DNA of 64,000 nt from a virus (IMGVR_UViG_2537561946_000006), one strand, 5' to 3'. Positions 1-21,696 are shown, counted from the first letter of the stretch. Notes: a model not told the origin generated them from the letters alone. Translations and numbers: made by a program.

Positions 1-780
1 ATGCATCGTATAGACACGAAAACCGCGCAGAAGGATAAGTTCGGCGCGGGTAAGAACGGTTTTACCCGTGGTAACCCCCAGACCGGCACGCCTGCCACCG
101 ATCTGGATGATGACTACTTTGACATGTTGCAGGAGGAACTTTGCAGCGTGGTGGAGGCATCCGGTGCCAGCCTGGAGAAGGCGCGGCACGACCAGTTGCT
201 TACCGCGCTTCGTGCGCTGCTGTTAAGCCGCAAAAATCCGTTTGGCGATATCAAATCGGATGGCACGGTGAAAACGGCTCTCGAAAACCTTGGTTTGGGA
301 GAAGGCTCTGCATTACCTGTTGGTGTCCCTGTTCCGTGGCCTTCCGCCACTCCGCCAACAGGCTGGCTGAAATGCAACGGTGCGGTTTTTTCTGCTGAAG
401 AATACCCGGAACTGGCAAAGGCTTATCCGACAAATAAATTGCCTGATTTACGTGGTGAGTTTATTCGTGGTTGGGATGACGGGCGCGGTATTGACGCGGG
501 GCGCGAAATTCTGTCTGCTCAGGGGGATGCTATTCGTAATATAACCGGCACATTTGGTAATGGACAAACCGAAGCTAATGCGGCTATTAGCTTTAATACA
601 GCGAGTGGTGTTTTTGTAAGTCAATCAGCACTTCGTAATACGATAGGTAACACCACAATCATTCCAAATACCCCAAACAATCCTCATTTAGTCAATTTTG
701 ATGCTTCAAGAGTAGTGCCAACTGCCTCAGAGAACAGACCAAGAAACATTGCATTTAACTATATCGTGAGAGCAGCATAA
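1..780 (+). CDS. stf: side tail fibre protein, C-terminal part (5' end outside window); arm currently in expressed orientation
   Basis: ORF reaches window edge; C-terminus ...[14 protein letters not shown] matches the lambda Stf / e14 StfE-type C-terminal domain; invertase crossover site lies inside the gene. Confidence 0.85.
278..303. other. pixL-type invertase crossover site (hix/gix/cix family)
   Basis: CTCTCGAAAACC-TT-GGTTTGGGAGAA, imperfect 26-bp palindrome; inner half is the exact reverse complement of the inner half at 2036-2047. Confidence 0.55.
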
Positions 781-1382
781 TGGATAAAGCAATATTAAAT
801 AGTGGACTTGTTGCTACAAAGGCAGGGGATATTACCGTTTATAACTATGATGGTGAAACGCGGGAATATATTTCCACATCAACTGAATATCTTGCGGTTG
901 GCGTCGGTATCCCGGCATGTTCTTGTTTAGATGCACCAGTTACACATAAAGCTGGTTATACAATTTGCCGTTCTGTGGATTTAAAATCATGGGAATATGT
1001 GTCAGACCATCGCGGTGAAATCGTCTATAACACCGAAACGGGAGACGCCAAAGAAATCACAGCTCCGGGTGATTACCCTGAAAATACAACCACTATCGCC
1101 CCGTTAACGCCATATGATAAATGGGATGGTGAGAAATGGGTGACGGATACTGAGGCACAGCATAGCGCCGCAGTAGAAGCGGCAGAAGCACAGCGCCAGT
1201 CACTGATTGATGCAGCAATGGTTTCCATTAGTCTGATTCAGCTGAAATTACAGGCCGGACGGAAGTTGACGCAGGCAGAAACAACCCGACTTAACGCCGT
1301 GCTGGATTACATTGACGCGGTGACGGCAACAGATACCAGCACCGCGCCGGATGTCATCTGGCCTGAACTGCCGGAGGCGTAG
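780..1382 (+). CDS. tfa: tail fibre assembly protein
   Basis: 200 aa, starts at stf stop, convergent and overlapping with second tfa; typical Tfa size and position. Confidence 0.85.
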   Translation: MDKAILNSGLVATKAGDITVYNYDGETREYISTSTEYLAVGVGIPACSCLDAPVTHKAGYTICRSVDLKSWEYVSDHRGEIVYNTETGDAKEITAPGDYPENTTTIAPLTPYDKWDGEKWVTDTEAQHSAAVEAAEAQRQSLIDAAMVSISLIQLKLQAGRKLTQAETTRLNAVLDYIDAVTATDTSTAPDVIWPELPEA

Positions 1383-1806
1383 GCCATTCAATATCTGGAG
1401 CACTGGAGGTATCAACCAGTTCCAGTGCGTCCAGATAATCCAGCCACAAATTATATTGCGCCAGTTCATCATCTTTCAGACGACCAATAGCGGCTTTACC
1501 GGGCCATTGCTTACTGTTCATGTATTCGTTGGCCTGGTTAATTAGTAGCTGTCTTTCTGATTCTGTAATTTCAATAAGTTCTTCATGCGTGGGTGGAGGA
1601 ATATCTGCCCACGCAGGCAGCCCATCATCTCCGGCAATACGAATTTTTCCTTGTGGCGGTTCAGCCATAAACTCACTGATAATATTTTGATTTACTTCCT
1701 TAGCGTCTGATAAATCCCATCCCTCTGATTTATATTTATCAATCATATCCACAGGGAAAAAAGCATTATGCCTTGCGCTATAAACATATTCGTTCATATA
1801 AATCAC
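1354..1806 (-). CDS. tfa: alternative tail fibre assembly protein (silent orientation)
   Basis: 147-150 aa (ATG at 1797 or 1806); C-terminal ...SSAPDIEWPTPP mirrors ...STAPDVIWPELPEA of the plus-strand Tfa; Mu U/U'-like arrangement. Confidence 0.75.
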   Translation of the reverse strand: MIYMNEYVYSARHNAFFPVDMIDKYKSEGWDLSDAKEVNQNIISEFMAEPPQGKIRIAGDDGLPAWADIPPPTHEELIEITESERQLLINQANEYMNSKQWPGKAAIGRLKDDELAQYNLWLDYLDALELVDTSSAPDIEWPTPPAVQAR

Positions 1807-2035
1807 CCTGAATAAAATTACTCACCAACAGCCCACCAACTGTAATTCATCGATACCGTGTCGCTGGTTGATGACGTTCTGTAAGCAGAATTAAAGCCGG
1901 TTAACGTTGGGCCTTCTGCAGTCATCACGAACCCTCGCCCAGCGCCTAAAGGCGCACCGCCATCACCAGAATGAGTAAGCATGGCTCGTATAACTTCGTA
2001 TAATGTATGCTATACGAAGTTATACGTTTTGCCGC
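1807..2035 (-). pseudogene. remnant of alternative tail-fibre C-terminal arm, interrupted by loxP
   Basis: minus-strand frame from pixR reads GLGEAAKR + loxP peptide ITSYSIHYTKLY then stops; a separate 56-codon frame (MLTHSGDGG...SMNYSWWAVGE) ends at 1807 next to tfa start; arm is far shorter than the 157-codon plus-strand arm. Confidence 0.45.
1990..2023. other. loxP site, 34/34 match to wild type
   Basis: ATAACTTCGTATA-ATGTATGC-TATACGAAGTTAT read directly. Confidence 0.9.
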
Positions 2036-2061
2036 TTCTCCCAAACCAACGTTTATGAAAA
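2036..2061. other. pixR-type invertase crossover site
   Basis: TTCTCCCAAACC-AA-CGTTTATGAAAA immediately upstream of pin. Confidence 0.55.
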
Positions 2062-2115
2062 TGCAGAAATAACGAGCAAATGGCATCATTCCTGCTTTTG
2101 TCAGGGAGATCTACC

Positions 2116-2670
2116 ATGCTTATTGGCTATGTACGTGTGTCAACAAATGACCAGAACACAGATCTACAACGTAATGCGCTGAACTGTGCAGGATGTGAGC
2201 TGATTTTTGAAGACAAGATAAGCGGTACAAAGTCCGACAGACCAGGACTGAAAAAGCTGCTCAGGACATTATCGGCAGGTGACACGCTGGTGGTCTGGAA
2301 ACTGGACCGACTGGGGCGCAGTATGCGGCATCTTGTCGTGCTGGTGGAGGAGTTGCGCGAACGAGGCATCAACTTTCGTAGTCTGACGGATTCAATTGAT
2401 ACCAGTACCCCAATGGGGCGCTTTTTCTTTCATGTGATGGGTGCCCTGGCTGAAATGGAGCGTGAACTGATTGTTGAACGAACAAAAGCTGGACTGGAAG
2501 CAGCTCGCGCACAGGGACGAATTGGTGGACGTCGCCCCAAACTTACACCAGAACAATGGGAGCAGGCCGGACGATTAATTGCATCAGGCGTTCCTCGCCA
2601 GAAGGTGGCGATCATCTATGATGTTGGTATATCGACACTGTATAAGAAGTTTCCGGTCGGAGATAAATGA
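2116..2670 (+). CDS. pin: DNA invertase, serine recombinase of the Hin/Gin/Cin/Pin family
   Basis: MLIGYVRVSTNDQNTDLQ... catalytic Ser near N-terminus, 184 aa, C-terminal HTH; ATG at 2116 preceded by GGGAG. Confidence 0.95.
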   Translation: MLIGYVRVSTNDQNTDLQRNALNCAGCELIFEDKISGTKSDRPGLKKLLRTLSAGDTLVVWKLDRLGRSMRHLVVLVEELRERGINFRSLTDSIDTSTPMGRFFFHVMGALAEMERELIVERTKAGLEAARAQGRIGGRRPKLTPEQWEQAGRLIASGVPRQKVAIIYDVGISTLYKKFPVGDK

Positions 2671-2730
2671 AACCGTAGCACGTCGTATGCAAGAAGATCG
2701 TGCTGCGGTTTATGCTTATCACTTAAAGAC

Positions 2731-3600
<870 letters not shown>

Positions 3601-3683
3601 CTAACCCTTTGAATTTACATAGCGCAAAAAGATACCTTTCCTCATAATGTGAGCTAATTTTATGTTTCGTTTGATGATCGGGT

Positions 3684-3745
3684 CGGTCTCGAAAACCGGA
3701 GTGGGGGCAACTCCACCGGGGGTTCAAATCCCCCTCTCTCCGCCA
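3684..3745 (+). repeat. att core: 3' 62 nt of tRNA-Ser (serU-type), no 5' half
   Basis: CGGTCTCGAAAACCGGAGTGGGGGCAACTCCACCGGGGGTTCAAATCCCCCTCTCTCCGCCA; differs from copy at 53848 by a compensatory pair in the variable arm. Confidence 0.8.
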
Positions 3746-3797
3746 AAATTCAATCACTTACACATCATTAAGTCAGTGACAAAAATCACACTTGGAA

Positions 3798-4823
3798 TTA
3801 CTTGGAATATTTTCTTGGAATATTTTCAGGTAACGGGACATCAAGTGTTGGTGAAACTTTAACCTTCCTGTCATAGATTAGCACTTGCCCTTCGGTTTTG
3901 TGACCAGAGAAAAGTTGCTTATCCCGGCTGCTTCCTTCATAGTCTGAAATTCCTTTCGCCTTCAGATCATGAAAGGTGAAGTCGGTTAAAATACCTGAAA
4001 TTTTGCCTGCGTGATTTCTTGCTTCTACCCACATTTCGTTAAAGCCTTTGTACATATATCGGTTGCCGTATTGATTGCTGATTACATAGGCGGATGTTGG
4101 TAACTGTTTTGCTTTTTCGATCGCCGCCTGTAATCGTGGACTCCATGCTTTTATCTGTTTTTTCCCTGTTTTCCCTTGCTGGATAAAGATCCCGTCGTTT
4201 CCAATCTGCTCCCATTTCAGCGATAACACATCGGAAACCCTCGCTGCACACAGATAGGCAATTTCCATTGCGATAAAAACAGGAAGAGGTGCAACGCTTA
4301 ATACTGCCTGGTATTCTTTGTCGGTTACATATCGTTCGCGGTTTTTGGCCTTGAATTTACTTACACCTGCACATGGGTTAGCCTTCACGTATCCTCGCTC
4401 ATACCCCCAACTATAAACGCGCGACATACTGCTTTTTTCATGGTTTGCCTGCGTTTTACTCTGCTCGCCTCTTTTGTCCATGTATCGTCTGATGTGCTCT
4501 GGTTTTACAGAATCGGCCAGCACCTTACCGAATACGGCCAGCAGCTTTTTTTGATGTTGCAGATAATCTTTTTGAGTTCTAGGACTAAGCTCGCTGTAAT
4601 AGGCGCTGGCGAGAAATTTTTCCCACAAACGCCCAAATGTCATTGCGCGATCGCGATGGTTAACCGTTTCTTCATACTTTTTCCATAATGCGGCTAAACC
4701 ATCCTCGATTGCAGTTAAGGTTACAGATTCTCTGGATGTCGGTTTCCATACATAACTATATTTATTGGGGTATACCTTTGGCGGTAATTTTTCGTGTTCG
4801 GGATTTTTCCTTCGTCTTCCCAT
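3798..4823 (-). CDS. int: tyrosine integrase
   Basis: 341 aa, C-terminal ...FHDLKAKG...LIYDRKV motifs; 3' end faces att core. Confidence 0.95.
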   Translation of the reverse strand: MGRRRKNPEHEKLPPKVYPNKYSYVWKPTSRESVTLTAIEDGLAALWKKYEETVNHRDRAMTFGRLWEKFLASAYYSELSPRTQKDYLQHQKKLLAVFGKVLADSVKPEHIRRYMDKRGEQSKTQANHEKSSMSRVYSWGYERGYVKANPCAGVSKFKAKNRERYVTDKEYQAVLSVAPLPVFIAMEIAYLCAARVSDVLSLKWEQIGNDGIFIQQGKTGKKQIKAWSPRLQAAIEKAKQLPTSAYVISNQYGNRYMYKGFNEMWVEARNHAGKISGILTDFTFHDLKAKGISDYEGSSRDKQLFSGHKTEGQVLIYDRKVKVSPTLDVPLPENIPRKYSK

Positions 4824-5026
4824 TAGATCGCACCGAAATCAGGTTCAGCCTCACGTGGTGGTAAAGTTTTTATACAGGTAAACAGTTCCCGACTGACGAT
4901 CGGTTTTCCACTACGATTGGTATAGAACGGAAGCCCATTTTTTATTAACCAGTTGCGCTGGTGGCTTGCATATTTGCAGCCCGTTAACGTTTGCAATTCA
5001 TTTTCGGTTAAAAATATGCTGCTCAT
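4823..5026 (-). CDS. xis: excisionase-like small protein
   Basis: 67 aa, start codon overlaps int; position-based. Confidence 0.6.
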   Translation of the reverse strand: MSSIFLTENELQTLTGCKYASHQRNWLIKNGLPFYTNRSGKPIVSRELFTCIKTLPPREAEPDFGAI

Positions 5027-5084: not shown

Positions 5085-7556
5085 TTAAAAATCAGCCTGA
5101 CTCGGGAGCAGTTTTTGCCAGATGGCTGAAACGTATTTTGCCTGGTAACGCGCATCGTGCAGGGCGTTATGGCGTTCACCTTCGAATGGAATAGTCGTTC
5201 TTGCGTCGAAATCCATCACCAGTCCCAGAGCAACCATCGTTCTTACATCGCGATCATTGGTGTAACGCCACGGGCAGGGGATCCCCTGCCGTTCATATGA
5301 ACGGCGTAAAATCACGTTGTCGAAAGTTGCACCGTTACCCCAGACCTGAACAAAAAATTCACCGGAGTTTTCGTCGATAAATTCCCGGAATTGCAGCAGT
5401 GCATCATCCAACGTGATTTCATCGGTCAGAATGGAGGATTGTGCTTCGCGTGACTGTTTCAGCCACCACTTAATGGTGTCCCGATCGATGACCCCACCTG
5501 CGGTTTCCAGATCGATAGTTTTGCTGAATTCTGGCCCCATCTCTCCGGTTGCCGGATCAAAAAACTTACCGGCTATAGCGTTTATTGGCGCATCAGGATT
5601 TTTTCCCATTGTTTCAAGGTCAATCATCAGATGGTGCCACAACCTGCTGGTGGATGAGATTTCATGATGACCGTTCACTTTAATTAAGGGATTTGCTGTT
5701 TCGCCAGTTTTATTATCGCTGGCGTGATACTGATCGCTGCCAGTGTTCTCCTTGTGCAGATGTTCAGTGCCTTCCATTTCCTCCGGATCATTTTTCTGAG
5801 CTTCAGCCTGATTCTCTTCATCGAATGTTTCCAGGTAGGTTGCGTTCCCCATCACCGCACCACAGTCAGGACAGTTGCCGCCACCGGTCTGACCGCATGC
5901 GGTGCAAACTTTTTCCAGTTCCTGTTGCACTGCTGGTTCTGGTTGTTGTTCTTCTGGCCCGTTTTGTTGCGTATCCGGGCTGTTTTGTTCCGCTTCTGGC
6001 TCATTTTGTTTCACGTTGGGCTGATTCTGGTCCTCAGCGTCGCGACTCTGGATCCCTTTCACCCATTTCGGATCATTCGGGTCGCTAATCCCTTCAACAA
6101 ATTCACCACGTGATGCAGCAAGCAATTTATCGGCGTCAGGCTGGCTGATATTGGCTGCCTGCATAATTTTGTTTACTTCGTCAGCGGTAACTTTTACCGG
6201 CTCTGATTGTTCGGAATCTTCAGCGGTATCCACATTTTGCGGTAAGCCCGTGTATGTGCCATTTTTTCGGGCAAAATATTCTTCTTTTGAGATTTCGGTA
6301 CCGCCGGCAGCCAGCGCCTTGTCCAGACCAGAAAGTTTGTTTGCCCTGCCGTATTTTTCCCCGCCCTTATCGGTAAAGACGAAATAAAATGGTCCTTCAC
6401 GCTCTACAGATGGTTCAGCTTCCACCAGGATTTCATTTTTTTGAGTATCGGATTCTGCCGTCTCCACTGGAGCAGTTTGTGCTGCTGACGGCTGGAGAGC
6501 ATCAGTAGAGCTCTGGTCTGTTTCTTCATGTTCAAACACGCCCTTTGTCGTCAGGTATTCACTGATATATTTGTTCAGTGCAACGGGATCTTTGTGAATA
6601 TCGATCGGACGTTCGCGAACAAGGCCAAAAATAGTCTGACGGTCATAGCCAAGTGCTTCGGGCTGTTTGCGCATTGATGCTGAGATACGCTTCCAGTCTT
6701 CGCGATCCTTGTCGATAACCTCATTTGTCGCCCAGCGATGGATGGTACCGTCAATGTTTCCTGCATCCACATCACCGGGCCAGAGGGCGCAGGCCAGTTC
6801 ATTGTCGAGTGTTTTCCATGTCTGTTTGTATTCGCGGCGAATGGCAACAGTGACAGCCCCGGTTTTTTCAGCAGCGTTTTCAGTGTTCTGTTGGTTGACT
6901 CTGGCGCGGGTGAGATCAACAACAGACGTGTATTTTCCGGTTTCCTTGCGTTCACCTTCGCGACGTTTTTTCCAGATGCGCATCTCTGCCTGAATTTCAG
7001 GCCATTTAGCGCCAGGCTCACATTTATGCTTAACCCACCCGATGGCATGCAGTTTAAGTTCAGGATACATGGCGTTAACTTCTGGCATTTTCATCAACGC
7101 TTCAACGATATGTCCGCCGAATGTTGCCATGTCTTCCTGTAGTAATTCCTGTGCGCTAATCACCATATCAACGGTGATGTTTTCGCATGTGTCGAATTTA
7201 ACTAGGACTGCGTTCTGTACTTCAGGGGACAGCTTGTCAAAATTGACGTTCATCGGATCGGATTCTGGTTCGACCGGTACAAAGGAAGCTGACTCCTCAT
7301 CCCAGCGGTTTTCCTGCATATATTCGGTATCCCAGGAATCGAGGGCAGGGCGGGGTATGCCGGGTTTATCCTCGCAGACAATAAATTTATAAGCGCAGTC
7401 CTGAGCTGCCGGGAATTGCTCCAGAAATTGCCAGTGAAATTTTGCGCGTGCGCGACGCTCATCACCGGCTTCAATGGCAGTGGCCACCGCAACAGCGCTA
7501 TCTTCTTTTATGGCCTGTTCGTCAGGAATAGCAGCGCAAATAAAGATTTTACTCAT
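5085..7556 (-). CDS. phage exonuclease, 823 aa, C-terminal DnaQ-like 3'-5' exonuclease domain
   Basis: IDLETMG, WGNGATFD and HNALHDARYQAKY motifs at C-terminus; CTACGQTGGGNCPDCG zinc ribbon; acidic Q/E/P-rich linker. Confidence 0.8.
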   Translation of the reverse strand: MSKIFICAAIPDEQAIKEDSAVAVATAIEAGDERRARAKFHWQFLEQFPAAQDCAYKFIVCEDKPGIPRPALDSWDTEYMQENRWDEESASFVPVEPESDPMNVNFDKLSPEVQNAVLVKFDTCENITVDMVISAQELLQEDMATFGGHIVEALMKMPEVNAMYPELKLHAIGWVKHKCEPGAKWPEIQAEMRIWKKRREGERKETGKYTSVVDLTRARVNQQNTENAAEKTGAVTVAIRREYKQTWKTLDNELACALWPGDVDAGNIDGTIHRWATNEVIDKDREDWKRISASMRKQPEALGYDRQTIFGLVRERPIDIHKDPVALNKYISEYLTTKGVFEHEETDQSSTDALQPSAAQTAPVETAESDTQKNEILVEAEPSVEREGPFYFVFTDKGGEKYGRANKLSGLDKALAAGGTEISKEEYFARKNGTYTGLPQNVDTAEDSEQSEPVKVTADEVNKIMQAANISQPDADKLLAASRGEFVEGISDPNDPKWVKGIQSRDAEDQNQPNVKQNEPEAEQNSPDTQQNGPEEQQPEPAVQQELEKVCTACGQTGGGNCPDCGAVMGNATYLETFDEENQAEAQKNDPEEMEGTEHLHKENTGSDQYHASDNKTGETANPLIKVNGHHEISSTSRLWHHLMIDLETMGKNPDAPINAIAGKFFDPATGEMGPEFSKTIDLETAGGVIDRDTIKWWLKQSREAQSSILTDEITLDDALLQFREFIDENSGEFFVQVWGNGATFDNVILRRSYERQGIPCPWRYTNDRDVRTMVALGLVMDFDARTTIPFEGERHNALHDARYQAKYVSAIWQKLLPSQADF

Positions 7557-7651
7557 TGTGTTTTAACCTCATTACAGATTTCAGGGTGAACGAATCCCTG
7601 CCATTGCTGGCATTTTTAATCCGTTGGTATGGCGTTAATATAGCTGGCGGG

Positions 7652-7840
7652 TTATCCAGCCGGTGTTTCGTTATTCAGGTACAGCGATACTTTTTTTACC
7701 GGTAGGCATTCACCAGAAATTTTTTGCTCGTCTCTTGCCTGGAGGCTGGATTCTTTACTGGCATAAATTCCGGTAATCACATTTTGTGGCTCACCCGTTA
7801 TAAGAAAAACGGTCATCACCAGTGCAAACGCTGAAGTCAC
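7652..7840 (-). CDS. small hydrophobic protein downstream of dicB (YdfD position)
   Basis: 62 aa, overlaps dicB stop; position only. Confidence 0.35.
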   Translation of the reverse strand: MTSAFALVMTVFLITGEPQNVITGIYASKESSLQARDEQKISGECLPVKKVSLYLNNETPAG

Positions 7841-8025
7841 TGCTGTTCTCCGATAATACCAAGTTCAAGAAGGGCAATTCTGGAAAGTATGGAATTATCA
7901 TTGAGAAGATAAGGTTCATATTTTCTCATCTTAATGGCATCTTCAGTAAACTCCCGGTTACTGAGCAGAACACCAATATCAAAACAACCTTCAGACGTAT
8001 TAACGTTTGGTAATAACGTTTCCAT
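7837..8025 (-). CDS. dicB: DicB-like cell division inhibitor
   Basis: METLLPNVNTSEGCFDIGV... aligns with Qin DicB MKTLLPNVNTSEGCFEIGV... (recalled), 62 aa. Confidence 0.85.
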   Translation of the reverse strand: METLLPNVNTSEGCFDIGVLLSNREFTEDAIKMRKYEPYLLNDNSILSRIALLELGIIGEQQ

Positions 8026-8199: not shown

Positions 8200-8252
8200 G
8201 GGCGGCAGAGCAGCCACGGAGTAAAACTGATACCGCCAAACGTCACCAGAAA
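8200..8252 (-). ncRNA. dicF: DicF small RNA
   Basis: reverse complement TTTCTGGTGACGTTTGGCGGTATCAGTTTTACTCCGTGGCTGCTCTGCCGCCC, 52/53 to recalled DicF, followed by T-tract. Confidence 0.85.
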
Positions 8253-14409: not shown

Positions 14410-14969
14410 GCGTTCTCCCCATGAGCATTAAAGGATGCTTAAGATATGCTATGTCACTGATAAAAAATTTGTTGTGTGTGTTTAGTTATTTTATCTACCT
14501 CCATTATGATTTAAGACTGATATATGTTATCAGCAAAGGTACATCGTTATTATTTTACCTGTCAATACATTTGATATTGATTAGCGTTTACATCGCTTGC
14601 TTAGGAAATTGAAGGCAGGTAACTATCATGTCAATGAACTAACCCACAGTCTAACGTACTTCTTTCCCCAATCACCAACAACCAAATTCCTGTTATCACC
14701 ACTGGGATTTTGGCGCAACTTCATGGTGCAGAGGTAAATAGCATCAAGCAAAATCTCTTTTTCCGTTGTTGTCCTTATGGGACGTCTGTCTTTCTGACCG
14801 ATTTCATATTGGCGAGGTAATGGGAAGTTAAGTAGAATAGCTGCGGGTGCTTGAGGCTATCTGCCTCGGGCATGAACACCAACGGCAGATAGAGAAAAGC
14901 CCCAGTTAACATTACGCGTCCTGCAAGACGCTTAACATTAATCTGAGGCTCAATCTATGAACGGCAAAT

Positions 14970-16043
14970 CTAGGTTAGCCTCTTACGTGCCGAAAGGCAA
15001 GGAGATGTATGGGTCCACCACATATTGCAATTTTTATTCTCTTTTAAAATATATTCCACGGGCGTCATTAGTGCGAGCGCCTTGTGGGGTCTTTTGCTGT
15101 TATACAGCACCAGATATTCCGCCAGCTTCTGGTTAAATAGCGCCAGATCTTCAAAGAGTAAAATCTCATTAAATTCAATAAACTGCTCTCTTAACGTCCG
15201 GTTAAAACGTTCACAGATAGCGTTCATTTTTGGCGTGTAGGGATAGGTCCAGAGGTGTTTGATAGCGGCTTCCTGCAGCGTTTTGTCGAAGTTTCCCAGG
15301 AACTCTTTTCCGTTATCTGTGATTATCTGGCTGATACCGACCGGGAACAACCGGGCTGCGCGGCTGAAGAAGTGATTGACGATATCACTGTTGAGTGACG
15401 GCACAGCCAGCGCCAGCGCGTAATTGCTGCATTCGTCGATCATGGTGATGACATAGCGACGCAGTTCGCCCATTCTGAGCTCAATGGCGTCCATCCCAAT
15501 GAGCTCACCTGTCTTTACCGGGCGGTAGTGCTTTGGCCTGCGGGGTTTGGCAGACCGCTTTTTGACAAGCAGTGCCTTCCCCCGCGATCCCAGACGCACA
15601 GGTATCATCCGCATTTTATCATGTGCGGCAGCGATCATTCTGCCGATGGTGGAAACACTCGGACAGGCCAGATAGCGCTGTTCGCACCAGGGCTTCAGGC
15701 GAACAAAAATCTGCTCTTTACCGAGGTTCGGCAGCTCTGTCCTGAGGCGTCGAATCTCTTTCAGCACATCGGGATGCCAGTGTTTTTTTCGTCGCACCAG
15801 AGGTGCCTTACTGTGCGGGATTAGCCCCTCAGGTCCTTCCTTGTTCAGTAACTGACGCCACCAGTAAAGCGTGCGGCAGGACACGCCAAAGGCTTCAGAA
15901 GCTGCAGAAATACCGTGTTTATCCCAGAAGTGCAGAGCCTTCATTCTCATTGTTGCTATATCAGCCATCACTGAAAGCCTCAACGCATAATCGGCCGTTT
16001 GGTAGTACTTAGGATAGCCAACCATCAGATGCTGCATTTGCAT
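14970..16043 (-). mobile_element. IS transposase gene (DDE integrase-core type, IS481-like); element ends not resolved
   Basis: 357 aa with N-terminal HTH and DDE core ...DNGKEF...; interrupts the nin-region. Confidence 0.75.
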
Positions 16044-17776: not shown

Positions 17777-18136
17777 ATGCGTATAGAGTTTGTTTTGCCT
17801 TACCCGCCGACGGTGAACACCTACTGGCGACGTCGTGGCAGCACATATTTTGTATCAAAAGCCGGTGAGCGTTATCGCCGGGATGTGGCACTTATTGTTC
17901 GCCAGCAGCGGCTGAAATTAAACCTGTCCGGAAGGCTGGCGATAAAGATTATTGCCGAGCCACCGGATAAGCGCCGCCGTGACCTGGACAATATTCTGAA
18001 AGCGCCGCTGGATGCGCTGACGCATGCGGGGGTGCTAATGGACGATGAGCAGTTTGATGAAATCAATATTGTACGTGGTCAGCCAGTATCTGGTGGACGG
18101 CTGGGTGTGAAGATTTACAAAATTGAGAGTGAGTGA
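17777..18136 (+). CDS. rusA: RusA Holliday junction resolvase
   Basis: 119 aa, MRIEFVLPYPPTVNTYW...RRRDLDNILKAPLDAL. Confidence 0.9.
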   Translation: MRIEFVLPYPPTVNTYWRRRGSTYFVSKAGERYRRDVALIVRQQRLKLNLSGRLAIKIIAEPPDKRRRDLDNILKAPLDALTHAGVLMDDEQFDEINIVRGQPVSGGRLGVKIYKIESE

Positions 18137-18675
18137 GCGTAAATATGATATATCCGGAAATTACAGGCAAAAGCGGCGAACATTTACGCCTGAACACGCT
18201 GGAAGCAGTCTGGATCCAGGGGAAATTACGGATGTGGGGGCGGTGGTCGTATATCGGTGGGGGTAAATCCGGAAATATGTTTAACCGGTTACTGGTTTCG
18301 AAAAAGCTGACGAAAACAGCAGTTAATGAGGTTTTACGCAGCATGAAGAAATCCGGGCTGGAAAAACCGGAACTTGAGGCATTTTTTCGGGATATGACCA
18401 GAGGGAAGCAGAAGAGCTGGTTGTCACATTGTACAGACACAGAGGCGTTGATTATTGATCGCGTTATCAGTGAGGTGCTTGGGGAATATCCCGGGCTAAT
18501 CAATATTCTCCGGCAAAGGTACGAAGGACGGGGAATGAGTAAGAGAAAAATGGCAGAATGTTTAAATCGTACTCACCCGGAATGGTGTTTCAGCACATGT
18601 GAGAAACGTATTGCAGGTTGGTTAGCCGTGGCTGAACACATGCTTTATGTACCTATGCACGATTCATTTCGATAA
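18133..18675 (+). CDS. late-gene antiterminator Q-like protein
   Basis: 180 aa directly after rusA and before terminator plus late genes; positional. Confidence 0.6.
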   Translation: MSVNMIYPEITGKSGEHLRLNTLEAVWIQGKLRMWGRWSYIGGGKSGNMFNRLLVSKKLTKTAVNEVLRSMKKSGLEKPELEAFFRDMTRGKQKSWLSHCTDTEALIIDRVISEVLGEYPGLINILRQRYEGRGMSKRKMAECLNRTHPEWCFSTCEKRIAGWLAVAEHMLYVPMHDSFR

Positions 18676-18770
18676 AAAAAGCTTGCTTTTTTACGCAGAA
18701 ACAGCTTGAATTCCTGTAAGCTTCGCAAAGCTGTATCGCGAGGCGAAATGCAAGTTTTTTCGCACAAGGA

Positions 18771-18793
18771 AGCCACCGGAAGGTGGTTTTTTT
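18771..18793 (+). terminator. intrinsic terminator downstream of Q (tR'-like)
   Basis: CCACCGGAAGGTGG stem followed by TTTTTTT. Confidence 0.5.
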
Positions 18794-19264
18794 GTGTCCG
18801 TAATATACAGCAGCGCAATAAATTCGCTGGTGGTTATTAATACCGTTCTTTCAGGTTGCTGGCTTTTTCGACAAGAGTTATTGGTGTGTCACGTTAACCG
18901 GAAAAGGGAAAAAGACATGCTGAAACAGCAGGATATGACAGAAACCGCCAGAGTGGTGTTTAATGAATTAAGCGTTACCGACCCGGCGACAGTCGGGGAG
19001 ATTGCGCAGAATACTTACCTTTCACGCGAACGCTGCCAGTTAATACTGACCCAGCTGGTTATGGCGGGTCTGGCAGACTATCAGTTTGGTTGTTACAGAC
19101 GCCTTCAGTCCTGAAGGCTTTTTTATTTGTGGTAAATGGGCGGCTGGTGGGTGTAAGGGGCACCCACCAGCCATCTGCTCATGCGTTGGGTTCACAAGCA
19201 AACCTCAGGCCCACTGCTTTGCGCAAAAGCAGAATGAGCCTATCAGAGACAGGCTTAATGATCC

Positions 19265-20314
19265 ATGCTTAATACTGTAAAAATATCCAGTTGTGAGTTA
19301 ATCAACGCCGACTGCCTGGAATTTATGCGGTCGTTACCCGAAAATTCTGTTGACCTGATAGTCACGGACCCGCCGTACTTCAAAGTGAAACCCGAGGGCT
19401 GGGATAACCAGTGGGCGGGTGATGAAGATTACCTGAAGTGGCTGGACCAGTGTCTTGCGCAGTTCTGGCGGGTGCTGAAACCTGCCGGAAGTCTTTACCT
19501 GTTCTGTGGCCATCGTCTGGCATCTGACACCGAAATCATGATGCGTGAGCGGTTTAACGTGCTGAACCATATCATCTGGGCAAAGCCGTCCGGACGCTGG
19601 AACGGGTGCAACAAGGAAAGCCTGCGGGCGTATTTCCCCGCCACAGAGCGCATTCTGTTCGCAGAGCATTATCAGGGGCCGTATCGTCCGAAAGATGCCG
19701 GGTATGAGGCGAAGGGTAGGGCACTGAAACAGCATGTGATGGCCCCGCTGATTGCTTACTTTCGTGATGCGCGCGCTGTCCTGGGGATAACGGCAAAACA
19801 GATTGCAGATGCCACAGGAAAGAAAAACATGGTGTCGCACTGGTTCAGTGCCGGTCAGTGGCAGCTGCCGAACGAAAGCGATTATCTGAAATTACAGGCA
19901 CTGTTTGCCCGGGTGGCAGAAGAGAAGCATCAGCGGGGTGAACTGGAAAAGCCCCACCACCAGCTGGTGGATACGTATGCCTCTCTGAACCGACAGTATG
20001 CGGAGCTGCAGAGTGAATATAAGCATCTGCGGCGGTATTTTGGTGTGACGGCGCAGGTGCCGTACACGGATGTGTGGACACATAAACCGGTGCAGTTCTA
20101 TCCCGGGAAACATCCGTGCGAAAAACCGGCAGAAATGCTGCAGCAGATAATCAGCGCAAGCAGTCGTCCGGGTGACCTGGTTGCAGATTTTTTTATGGGC
20201 TCAGGTTCAACGGTAAAAGCGGCACTGGCGCTCGGGCGTCGTGCAATTGGCGTTGAGCTGGAGACTGAACGTTTTGAGCAGACAGTCAGGGAAGTTCAGG
20301 ATTTAATCGTTTGA
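19265..20314 (+). CDS. N6-adenine/N4-cytosine DNA methyltransferase (orphan, phage)
   Basis: IVTDPPYF motif; 349 aa; sits between Q and phage tRNAs. Confidence 0.85.
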   Translation: MLNTVKISSCELINADCLEFMRSLPENSVDLIVTDPPYFKVKPEGWDNQWAGDEDYLKWLDQCLAQFWRVLKPAGSLYLFCGHRLASDTEIMMRERFNVLNHIIWAKPSGRWNGCNKESLRAYFPATERILFAEHYQGPYRPKDAGYEAKGRALKQHVMAPLIAYFRDARAVLGITAKQIADATGKKNMVSHWFSAGQWQLPNESDYLKLQALFARVAEEKHQRGELEKPHHQLVDTYASLNRQYAELQSEYKHLRRYFGVTAQVPYTDVWTHKPVQFYPGKHPCEKPAEMLQQIISASSRPGDLVADFFMGSGSTVKAALALGRRAIGVELETERFEQTVREVQDLIV

Positions 20315-20363
20315 AACGGATGAGATTGCAGAATTAATTTCGCACCATTATTATTCTGGTCCC

Positions 20364-20439
20364 GGCCCTTTAGCTCAGTGGTGAGAGCGAGCGACTCATA
20401 ATCGCCAGGTCGCTGGTTCAAATCCAGCAAGGGCCACCA
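20364..20439 (+). tRNA. tRNA anticodon CAU (Ile2/Met-type, ileZ-like)
   Basis: GGCCCTTTAGCTCAGTGG...ACTCATAATCG...GGTTCAAATCC...AAGGGCCACCA, 76 nt. Confidence 0.9.
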
Positions 20440-20539
20440 TCACATACCGCCATTAGCTTATCAGGAAGAGCAGACGACACCATAACAGGGTTGTTGGTGC
20501 GGGGGCGGGTCCCCGATGGCGGTCCATTATCGGTATTCT

Positions 20540-20616
20540 GCGTTGTTAGCTCAGCCGGACAGAGCAATTGCCTTCTAAGCAATCGGTCAGTGGTTCGACT
20601 CCACTACAACGCGCCA
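20540..20616 (+). tRNA. tRNA-Arg anticodon UCU (argN/argO-like)
   Basis: GCGTTGTTAGCTCAGCC...CCTTCTAAGC...GGTTCGACTCC...ACAACGCGCCA, 77 nt. Confidence 0.9.
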
Positions 20617-20785
20617 CACTTATTTTCCAGGCTCGCTTCGGCGGGCCTTTTTTGTATCTGCGCCACGCCCGGTGCATATCAACCACAGAGCCTTTCGGGG
20701 GTGAGCTTACGGAGTGGTCAGTGTGACTTTCTCTGTGGGCAGATCGCTCCCGGGCGTTGGCTCACCCACCCAAAGGAACGTCACG

Positions 20786-21218
20786 ATGTTTGGTATTTTT
20801 GGTAAAAAAAGCCCGCAGAGCGGCAACGGAAATTAAAAAGTTTGAAAAACGCGATCTGGCACAGGTGGTGATTAACGCCGCATACCTGGTGGCCTGTGCA
20901 GATGGTGAATGTGAGGCTTCCTAGAAAGCGAAGATCGAACAGGTACTGCGTAATCAGCCTGCGCTGTCCGCGTTTACGTCAGAAATTAATGCGATTAGCG
21001 CAACCATTATCGGTCAGCTGGATACGAACTTTAAAATTGGTCGTCGTGCGGCGTTACGTGAGATCGAGGATGTGAAACACGATACGCGTGAAGCGGAAGA
21101 TGTGCTGGATGTGGCGGTGGCCATTGCGGAGGCAGACGGCGAAATTGAGCCGGAAGAGCGCAAGGTGCTGGAAGAGATTGCCGGTGTTCTGGGTCTTCGT
21201 CTGGAGAATCACCTGTGA
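20786..21218 (+). pseudogene. TerB-like domain gene disrupted by frameshift in an A7 run and an in-frame TAG
   Basis: ATG at 20786 stops at 20834; shifting one base in AAAAAAA at 20804-20810 gives MFGIFGKKARRAATEIKKFEKRDLAQVVINAAYLVACADGECEAS-TAG-KAKIEQ...AVAIAEADGEIEPEERKVLEEIAGVLGL. Confidence 0.5.
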
Positions 21219-21382
21219 CGGTAAAACTGCGCCTGACTGTGGCTGCACTCCTGCTGTTTCTGGTGGTGATGGTGGATTTCACCAGCAGAATCATGTCGGT
21301 GCTGGCGGATGGGGTGCTGGTCTGCGGCATTGTGGTATTGCTGTGGCCGGTGATAAAAAGAAACAGCCTGCATAATGCTTGA
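21215..21382 (+). CDS. small hydrophobic protein (GTG start), possible
   Basis: VTVKLRLTVAALLLFLVVMVDFTSRIMSVLADGVLVCGIVVLLWPVIKRNSLHNA, 55 aa. Confidence 0.3.
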   Translation: MTVKLRLTVAALLLFLVVMVDFTSRIMSVLADGVLVCGIVVLLWPVIKRNSLHNA

Positions 21383-21696
21383 TTTTTTTGTTTGCTGTTT
21401 ATTAAAAACACTTCTGCATGGTGAATCCCCCTGTGCGGAGGGGCAATCAGCGAGTAGGTATATGGGATAATCGCGGATTCAGGTGCTGGTACTGAATTCA
21501 CCGGGAGGCACCCGGCACCATGCTTTGCCACAAAAGTGTTATTTCTGTTTTTCTCAAACTATCATCGTTATCCCTTTATTTCCGGCTGCGCATGGCGCGG
21601 CCTTTTTTTTACGACCAGCCACTGGCAGATGGTCATCCTGTGATTTGATTCCGGTTCCGGCTTTTTAACTCTGTTCCTGTACACGGGAGAAATTCG

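Follow-up and report, generated by a model that had tools for sequence, protein, structure and literature searches.

Prophage B, an E. coli prophage with T3SS effector genes, is very probably nested within a second prophage, A, which resides at thrW. Its own integrase would have inserted it into a phage-borne 3' fragment of the tRNA gene serU (serU') with 278 bp of downstream flank, and a third prophage, C, stands in tandem with A. That B is nested in A, via a phage-borne attB of chromosomal origin, is concluded because A starts at thrW in related genomes and because the cassette carrying serU' occurs in phage records. The DNA analyzed here (the window) is a viral stretch of 64,000 nucleotides that is 100% identical to AFAG02000008.1, a 1.16-Mb contig of the draft assembly GCA_000194685.2, from position 26. 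This contig starts 25 nt before the window, inside prophage A, and the left end of A was read in relatives only. Features and their coordinates are collected in Table 1.

Table 1. Annotated features of the window, with coordinates counted from its first nucleotide.
Feature	Position	Strand	Remarks
Right end of host prophage A	1–3683	.	Tail, invertase and GIY-YIG genes and 179-nt arm abutting the serU fragment
Tail-fibre gene (A)	1–780	+	
Tail-fibre assembly gene (A)	780–1382	+	
Tail-fibre assembly gene (A), opposite orientation	1354–1806	-	
Pin-type invertase (A)	2080–2670	+	Pfam Resolvase/HTH_7
LEM-3-like GIY-YIG gene (A)	2731–3504	-	Pfam LEM-3_GIY-YIG
Left junction of B: 62-nt serU 3' fragment, variant type (G-C)	3684–3745	+	Phage-supplied from nt 20 on; no functional tRNA
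Prophage B, lambdoid, 50.1 kb	3746–53857	.	~99% identical to the native-serU prophage of 14EC007
Int_B, 341-aa tyrosine recombinase, ST64B Sb28 / CP-933U type	3798–4823	-	Pfam Phage_integrase, E = 5e-11
DUF4224 protein, 67 aa, probable excisionase / directionality factor	4823–5026	-	Pfam DUF4224, E = 4e-15
nleB2	49987–50967		Pfam SseK_NleB
Truncated nleC, 96-aa N-terminal ORF	51001–51291		
Disrupted nleH region, 191-aa ORF	51685–52260		No Pfam match
nleF	52575–53144		Pfam NleF
Right junction of B: 62-nt serU 3' fragment, canonical (resident) type	53858–53919	+	K-12 serU nt 29–90
serU downstream flank (serU-yodB intergenic), 278 bp, captured host DNA	53920–54197	+	
Rest of the right arm of A	54198–55999	.	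99.3% identical to TW10722 and EC93
AraC-family regulator	54493–55245	+	Pfam
IS remnant with rve integrase core	55287–55652	-	Pfam
thrW' fragment, 46-nt 3' end of tRNA-Thr(CGU)	56000–56045	+	Right boundary of A, left junction of C
Int_C, 386-aa thrW-type integrase, start of prophage C	56060–57220	-	Pfam Phage_integrase, E = 3e-34

The serU fragments and the insertion of prophage B

A degenerate pattern of the 62-nt serU 3' end, allowing up to 3 mismatches, matched the window exactly twice, both times on the + strand, and was not matched in any of 100 dinucleotide-preserving shuffles. The original prediction had described two such copies as the limits of prophage B. Both are real and the left one was placed exactly, but the coordinates given for the right one (53848–53909) were 10 nt too low. 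The identity between the copies stops at CCA on the 3' side and extends just one nucleotide (T) past the block on the 5' side. Prophage boundaries with a duplicated tRNA 3' end are textbook knowledge. Neither ARAGORN nor Rfam detected a tRNA-Ser in the window, which agrees with the observation made beforehand that both copies are devoid of the tRNA 5' half. The only tRNAs identified by these programs were a tRNA-Met and a tRNA-Arg inside prophage B.

When compared with serU of K-12, the right copy was identical to nt 29–90 at 62/62 positions, so that its earlier assignment as canonical holds, and the left copy matched at 60/62. The two copies thus differ at 2 positions, with GTGGGGGCAACTCCAC in the left and GTAGGGGCAACTCTAC in the right copy. 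Both differences lie in the third pair of the 6-bp stem of the variable arm, where A-U is replaced by G-C, and the change is compensatory, as had been proposed from the sequence of the left copy. The full-length tRNAs of both types fold as cloverleaves (-40.6 and -42.6 kcal/mol), and of the single-change intermediates one retains a G-U wobble pair and the other breaks the stem. The variant gene, present as the native gene in EDL933 and 14EC007, was identified as tRNA-Ser(CGA) by ARAGORN.

The unoccupied site was found in DANMNX010000060.1, which aligned with window positions 2056–3760 at 99.6% and with 53857–63242 at 99.99% identity (1 mismatch in 9,386 nt), and in which both flanks are joined via one canonical copy. 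TW10722 and EC93 contain an equally unoccupied junction with one canonical copy, and the last 70 nt left of the repeat are identical in these two genomes (70/70 nt) and in CD45. Within the right end of A, those parts that could be aligned to TW10722 are 91–98% identical. Compared with the empty site, the insertion of B is exact to the nucleotide and only the 62-nt block is duplicated. Because the matching unoccupied site contains one canonical copy together with both flanks, B is regarded as a clean site-specific insertion by a tyrosine integrase of the ST64B/CP-933U type. The two copies are the attachment junctions of B, and their proposed role as its boundaries is supported.

The left copy had been suggested to be supplied by the phage, and this was borne out by the comparison with other genomes. 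In EDL933 and 14EC007 the 5' half of the native serU is fused to the variant 3' part, giving an intact gene that is followed by the same integrase-side arm as in the window, whereas the empty sites of TW10722, EC93 and DANMNX010000060.1 are canonical. The distal copy is canonical in both 14EC007 and CD45. Since the same variant and integrase arm are present at the native serU of EDL933 and 14EC007, and the distal copy of 14EC007 is canonical, the variant is concluded to originate in the attP of the phage. The attP of B would then consist of the 62-nt serU 3' end, from the anticodon stem to CCA, with the G-C variant in the variable arm. No attP of B from a free phage was recovered; two 'phage' records with 97% identity are prophage predictions that include mtfA.

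The mismatches are segregated between the copies: the one next to the integrase has the phage-type base at both positions, and the distal one has the resident-type base at both. Because the two types segregate to opposite copies, the crossover is placed in CGGTCTCGAAAACCGGAGT, on the 5' side of the first mismatch. These first 19 nt of the block correspond to the anticodon stem-loop. Integrases that target tRNA genes commonly cut at the anticodon loop (anticodon-loop class). In the proposed mechanism, B would enter via site-specific recombination by its tyrosine recombinase between attP and the resident serU' in prophage A, and strand exchange in the first 19 nt would leave the phage-type bases proximal to the integrase and the resident-type bases distal to it.

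The integrase gene of B lies 52 nt inside the left copy. Int_B matches structures of lambda Int and aligns end-to-end with ST64B Sb28 at 57% identity, including the conserved Tyr317 (LIYDRK); in the ST64B record, the integrase of that phage is itself noted as similar to the CP-933U integrase. At residue 288, Int_B has HDLK versus HELR in lambda Int, so that a Lys replaces the second catalytic Arg. As this Lys is kept in ST64B Sb28 and in the integrase of a Stenotrophomonas phage, it is considered to be a family trait, and Int_B is predicted to be active. PGAP labels the orthologues of Int_B in EDL933, 14EC007 and CD45 as 'frameshifted'. The possibility that Int_B may be a frameshifted pseudogene was not favored, because the 341-aa ORF spans the full alignment with the ST64B integrase. 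The adjacent DUF4224 protein is probably an excisionase or directionality factor, a role assigned from gene position only: the corresponding gene of ST64B carries the annotation excisionase, and that of Stenotrophomonas phage BUCT708 the annotation DUF4224. The complete ST64B genome also contains a 62-nt tRNA-Ser 3' segment, which starts at the same CGGTCTCG and lies ~115 nt downstream of the integrase. Because ST64B has this same architecture, an attP with a tRNA-Ser 3' segment appears to be a property of the family.

Probable location of the insertion site in prophage A

Four complete genomes with the same junction between the arm of A and serU' were examined, two of which are occupied (CD45 and Z1323HEC0067) and two empty (EC93 and TW10722). 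A begins at proA-thrW-int in all three genomes in which the left end was read (CD45, EC93 and Z1323HEC0067), and the right boundary of the cluster is thrW'-yagP'-paoD in all three that were followed to that side (CD45, EC93 and TW10722). In CD45 the full right side could be followed as serU'-AraC-IS'-LysR'-paoD, and the right junction of Z1323HEC0067 was seen through AraC only. ARAGORN scans of the loci of CD45 (minus the middle of prophage B), EC93 and TW10722 (only 4 kb left of the junction) found tRNA-Thr and no tRNA-Ser. For Z1323HEC0067 the annotation was used, and it has a tRNA-Thr beside the A integrase.

In the window, A would likewise be integrated at thrW of the source genome, as extrapolated from these relatives. 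Its right boundary is formed by the 46-nt thrW' fragment, which is identical to intact thrW and begins in the anticodon loop, and which is followed by an arm identical to that of the thrW-int junction of Z1323PEC0014. No thrW' is present between the GIY-YIG gene of A and the serU fragment. Because of this, the segment composed of serU', 278 bp, AraC and IS' is assigned to A. The cluster would thus be arranged as proA-thrW-[A ... GIY-YIG-serU'(phage type)-[B]-serU'(resident)-278 bp-AraC-IS']-thrW'-[C ...]. The target of B would be a 5'-truncated copy of serU with 278 bp of chromosomal flank, carried as cargo in the right arm of A, and the serU gene itself would not be used.

The combination of the GIY-YIG arm and the serU fragment is present in 810 of the 5,426 complete genomes, and the segment serU'-AraC-IS'-thrW' in 324 of these 5,426. 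The occupied ectopic left junction was found in only two (CD45 and Z1323HEC0067) of the same set. Two scans of the genome-contig collection gave no match to the A-arm/serU' junction, and in the viral-contig collection it was identified in 9 IMG/VR loci.

The sequence to the right of B was compared with that of the native locus. The 340-bp block of serU' and flank (53857–54196) is 97.1% identical to K-12, and the homology to the native site ends there. The 278-bp flank adjoins yodB in 5,405 of the 5,426 complete genomes. The interpretation of the window as the native serU locus was rejected, because the right flank matches thrW-locus sequence and the native homology stops at 278 bp. A large inversion between prophages at serU and thrW was also rejected: in EC93, TW10722 and CD45 the cassette is flanked on both sides by genes of the thrW locus (proA ... 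paoD), and only 340 bp are derived from serU.

The original prediction placed an intact tRNA-Ser to the left of the window, followed by A and then B in tandem. This is probably wrong, since A of the relatives starts at thrW, no tRNA-Ser is present in the scanned loci, and the right flank is ectopic. Upstream of A in particular, the scans of CD45 and EC93 contained no tRNA-Ser gene, and the annotation of Z1323HEC0067 has tRNA-Thr at this place. In its fullest form, such a tandem at the native serU would read mtfA-serU(intact)-A-serU'-B-serU'-yodB, with the left copy being a scar from A integrating after B. It would account for the attR form of the A-arm/serU' junction, and GIY-YIG-ended prophages with this arm do adjoin yodB, apparently at the native serU, in a few genomes (MB15 and RMDEC332). 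In addition, the source contig starts 25 nt left of the window. However, to the right of 53919 only the 278-bp flank is found, followed by AraC, the IS remnant, thrW' and int_C instead of yodB, and in CD45, Z1323HEC0067, EC93 and TW10722 these junctions belong to the thrW-paoD locus, with A beginning at thrW in every case where its left end could be read. A tandem at the native serU is therefore considered improbable.

Even less probable is that B was moved without its integrase, a copy resident at serU having been transferred by transduction or homologous recombination via the homology of serU' and 278 bp. Such an exchange could use the 340 bp at 97% identity on the right side, and recombination between prophages is frequent in these strains (PMC7067040), which was counted in its favor. 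On the left side, however, a B at its native site and the ectopic site share only the 62-nt block. As both phage-type bases are retained in the left copy, the left exchange would be confined to the first 19–20 nt, which is far too short for RecA-dependent exchange, and the exactness of the insertion to the nucleotide compared with the empty site also argues against it.

An assembly artefact, in which the 62-nt repeat led to a false join of the end of A with B and B truly resides at the native serU, could be imagined for a draft (GCA_000194685.2) with a contig break inside A, but it is the least probable explanation and misassembly is unlikely because each junction recurs in two independent complete genomes (98.6 and 97.3% identity for the left, 99.7 and 99.3% for the right junction), and a mis-join would require errors at both repeats, the right copy having its ectopic continuation on the same contig.

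The nested insertion of B in A at thrW is thus the preferred explanation. Within the right end of A, the identity to TW10722 and CD45 falls to ~90% between 780 and 2670, with unaligned gaps. With its two oppositely oriented tail-fibre assembly genes beside a Pin-type invertase, this region has the appearance of an invertible segment for host range at the prophage end. The GIY-YIG ORF encodes 274 aa when read from a TTG start and 257 aa from an ATG start. On the other side of thrW', the region of Int_C, an intact integrase gene, is 99.6% identical to a prophage that adjoins the intact thrW in Z1323PEC0014. Prophage C extends to position 64000 and beyond the window end, and includes an IS3 element, a PACE transporter, a LysR regulator, ea22 and an exo-side early region. 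TW10722 and CD45 have the same thrW', but there only a remnant of an integrase arm of this kind, diverged in sequence, comes after it.

Content and relatives of prophage B

B encodes an exonuclease, dicB/DicF, hok/sok, tRNA-Met, tRNA-Arg, lysis functions, head and tail genes, and an effector locus at its end. It is ~99% identical, over ~47 of its 50 kb, to the prophage located between mtfA-serU and yodB in 14EC007, with the exception of 18123–21684. This is the sole large segment of B without a match in 14EC007 and it contains the tRNA-Met (20364–20439) and the tRNA-Arg (20540–20616); the equivalent segment of 14EC007 contains one tRNA-Ile and two tRNA-Arg. The difference suggests an exchange of modules in the late-regulatory region. 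A match to the STnc100 sRNA (21387–21559) comes after the tRNA genes. Rfam searches further detected in B the DicF antisense RNA (8200–8251, - strand, 75 bits), which adjoins dicB, and, for the hok/sok module, the sok antitoxin RNA (14845–15011, 102 bits).

More than 100 complete genomes, including many O145:H28 strains, have the right end of B adjoining the native serU flank, and the same int-attL module is present at the native serU of EDL933. The serU prophage of STEC O145:H28 has been described to carry nleB, nleF and nleH (PMC7067040), and the effector locus of B (nleB2, nleC', nleH' and nleF) agrees with that description. Part of this locus (51001–52260) has decayed, and in CD45 and 14EC007 the annotation gives the nleH orthologue as frameshifted.

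Just after nleF, a 99-bp segment (53559–53656) is 92.9% identical to the 5' end of the chromosomal ykgJ, and in related genomes it is labelled by PGAP as a pseudogene of partial YkgJ. This segment may be the ykgJ/ecpE-derived attB-in-PP_2 (96 bp in PMC8112680), and would then be an unoccupied landing site borne by B. If it serves as a further landing pad, such sites could chain prophages into clusters.

Origin of the serU cassette and comparison with known systems

The serU' fragment with its 278-bp flank has the form of an attR, in which a phage arm, a tRNA 3' end and a host flank follow each other. In MB15 and RMDEC332, the GIY-YIG arm, serU', the native flank and yodB are contiguous, and the coordinates in MB15 are consistent with the native serU locus. 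Judging from these sequences, this arrangement is likely to be the ancestral state of the cassette. The whole cassette, consisting of arm, serU', 278 bp, AraC and IS', was also identified in the genome records of the phages ev099, mEp332 and PhiR70_1. The ev099 copy (6001–7990) is situated in the b region of that phage, with the tail-fibre genes on one side and int on the other. Its left arm is similar to the right arm of B and not to that of A, and the phage has an attP of the lambda type. This suggests that the ev099 cassette descends by recombination from a nested cluster of the A/B type.

From these findings, the cassette is concluded to have been taken up from the chromosome and exchanged among lambdoid phages with different integrases. 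It most likely would have begun as the attR of a GIY-YIG-ended prophage at the native serU, been captured with the adjacent host DNA, and then spread among lambdoid phages by recombination. Imprecise excision or recombination between prophages would be possible routes for the capture. A more far-reaching proposal, which we regard as rather doubtful, is that the cassette of serU' and 278 bp is maintained among lambdoid phages (with a thrW-type integrase in A and a lambda-type one in ev099) as a phage-borne landing pad that recruits effector phages of the ST64B/CP-933U type. If this were true, a second copy of a serU phage could be acquired when the native serU is occupied, and the nested pair could recombine or move together.

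The corrected map of the locus, with a nested and tandem arrangement at thrW rather than a tandem at serU, changes the primers for excision PCR and the view of which tRNA gene is rebuilt or not. By annotation pipelines that rely only on the flanking tRNA fragment, B would be mislabelled as 'serU-integrated'. For attaching-and-effacing E. coli, the site adds a second docking place for the effector phage carrying nleB/nleH/nleF.

Several known elements can be compared with B and its junctions. In the record of Escherichia phage SerU-LTIIb (KU052038), a 62-nt tRNA-Ser pseudogene is annotated as the prophage end by yodB. It represents the same attR fragment in its native setting; the phage is a different lambdoid phage with the LT-IIb toxin and occupies the native site. 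The integrase module resembles that of Salmonella phage ST64B and of CP-933U from E. coli O157 in the integrase family (57% identity, HDLK and LIYDRK motifs) and in the small gene at the excisionase position, and ST64B likewise has a 62-nt 3' segment of tRNA-Ser(CGA) that starts at the same motif, in its case in the attP. ST64B differs in that its tRNA segment is of the Salmonella type and its phage backbone is another one. The prophage of 14EC007, which belongs with the nleB/nleH/nleF prophages of O145:H28, is essentially the same phage and has the same phage-side junction sequences. However, the copies in 14EC007 and O145:H28 are located between mtfA-serU and yodB, where they restore an intact tRNA gene, whereas the copy in the window lies inside a thrW prophage and, because its target is an ectopic fragment, no tRNA is rebuilt there.

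The closest known counterpart is the integration of prophages into prophages via host-derived attB sites (attB-in-PP_1/2/3, derived from yecE, ykgJ/ecpE and ompW) that was described by Nakamura, Ogura, Gotoh and Hayashi (2021, PLoS Pathog, PMC8112680). That paper mentions neither serU nor thrW in its main text, and no other paper with its terminology was found. The features of such sites are present here: the attB lies inside another prophage, it is homologous to the chromosome, and the same type of phage also occupies the native serU. As in PMC8112680, an attB of chromosomal origin is located with its flank near the end of a lambdoid prophage and is used by a lambdoid phage that also targets the chromosomal site, and the resulting nested and tandem cluster adds T3SS effector genes. 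Unlike the sites derived from yecE, ykgJ/ecpE and ompW, the attB described here is a tRNA 3' fragment. Its similarity to the chromosome is also higher, serU' being identical to K-12 and serU' with its flank 97% identical, compared to 81–87% for the published sites. Its neighbors are an AraC gene and an IS remnant instead of an effector locus, and, in contrast to those sites, the cassette is also present in phage genome records. The serU' cassette would thus be an additional attB-in-prophage site beyond attB-in-PP_1, _2 and _3, a tRNA-derived one for which the chromosomal origin is unusually clear, as its presumed ancestral junction persists in some strains.
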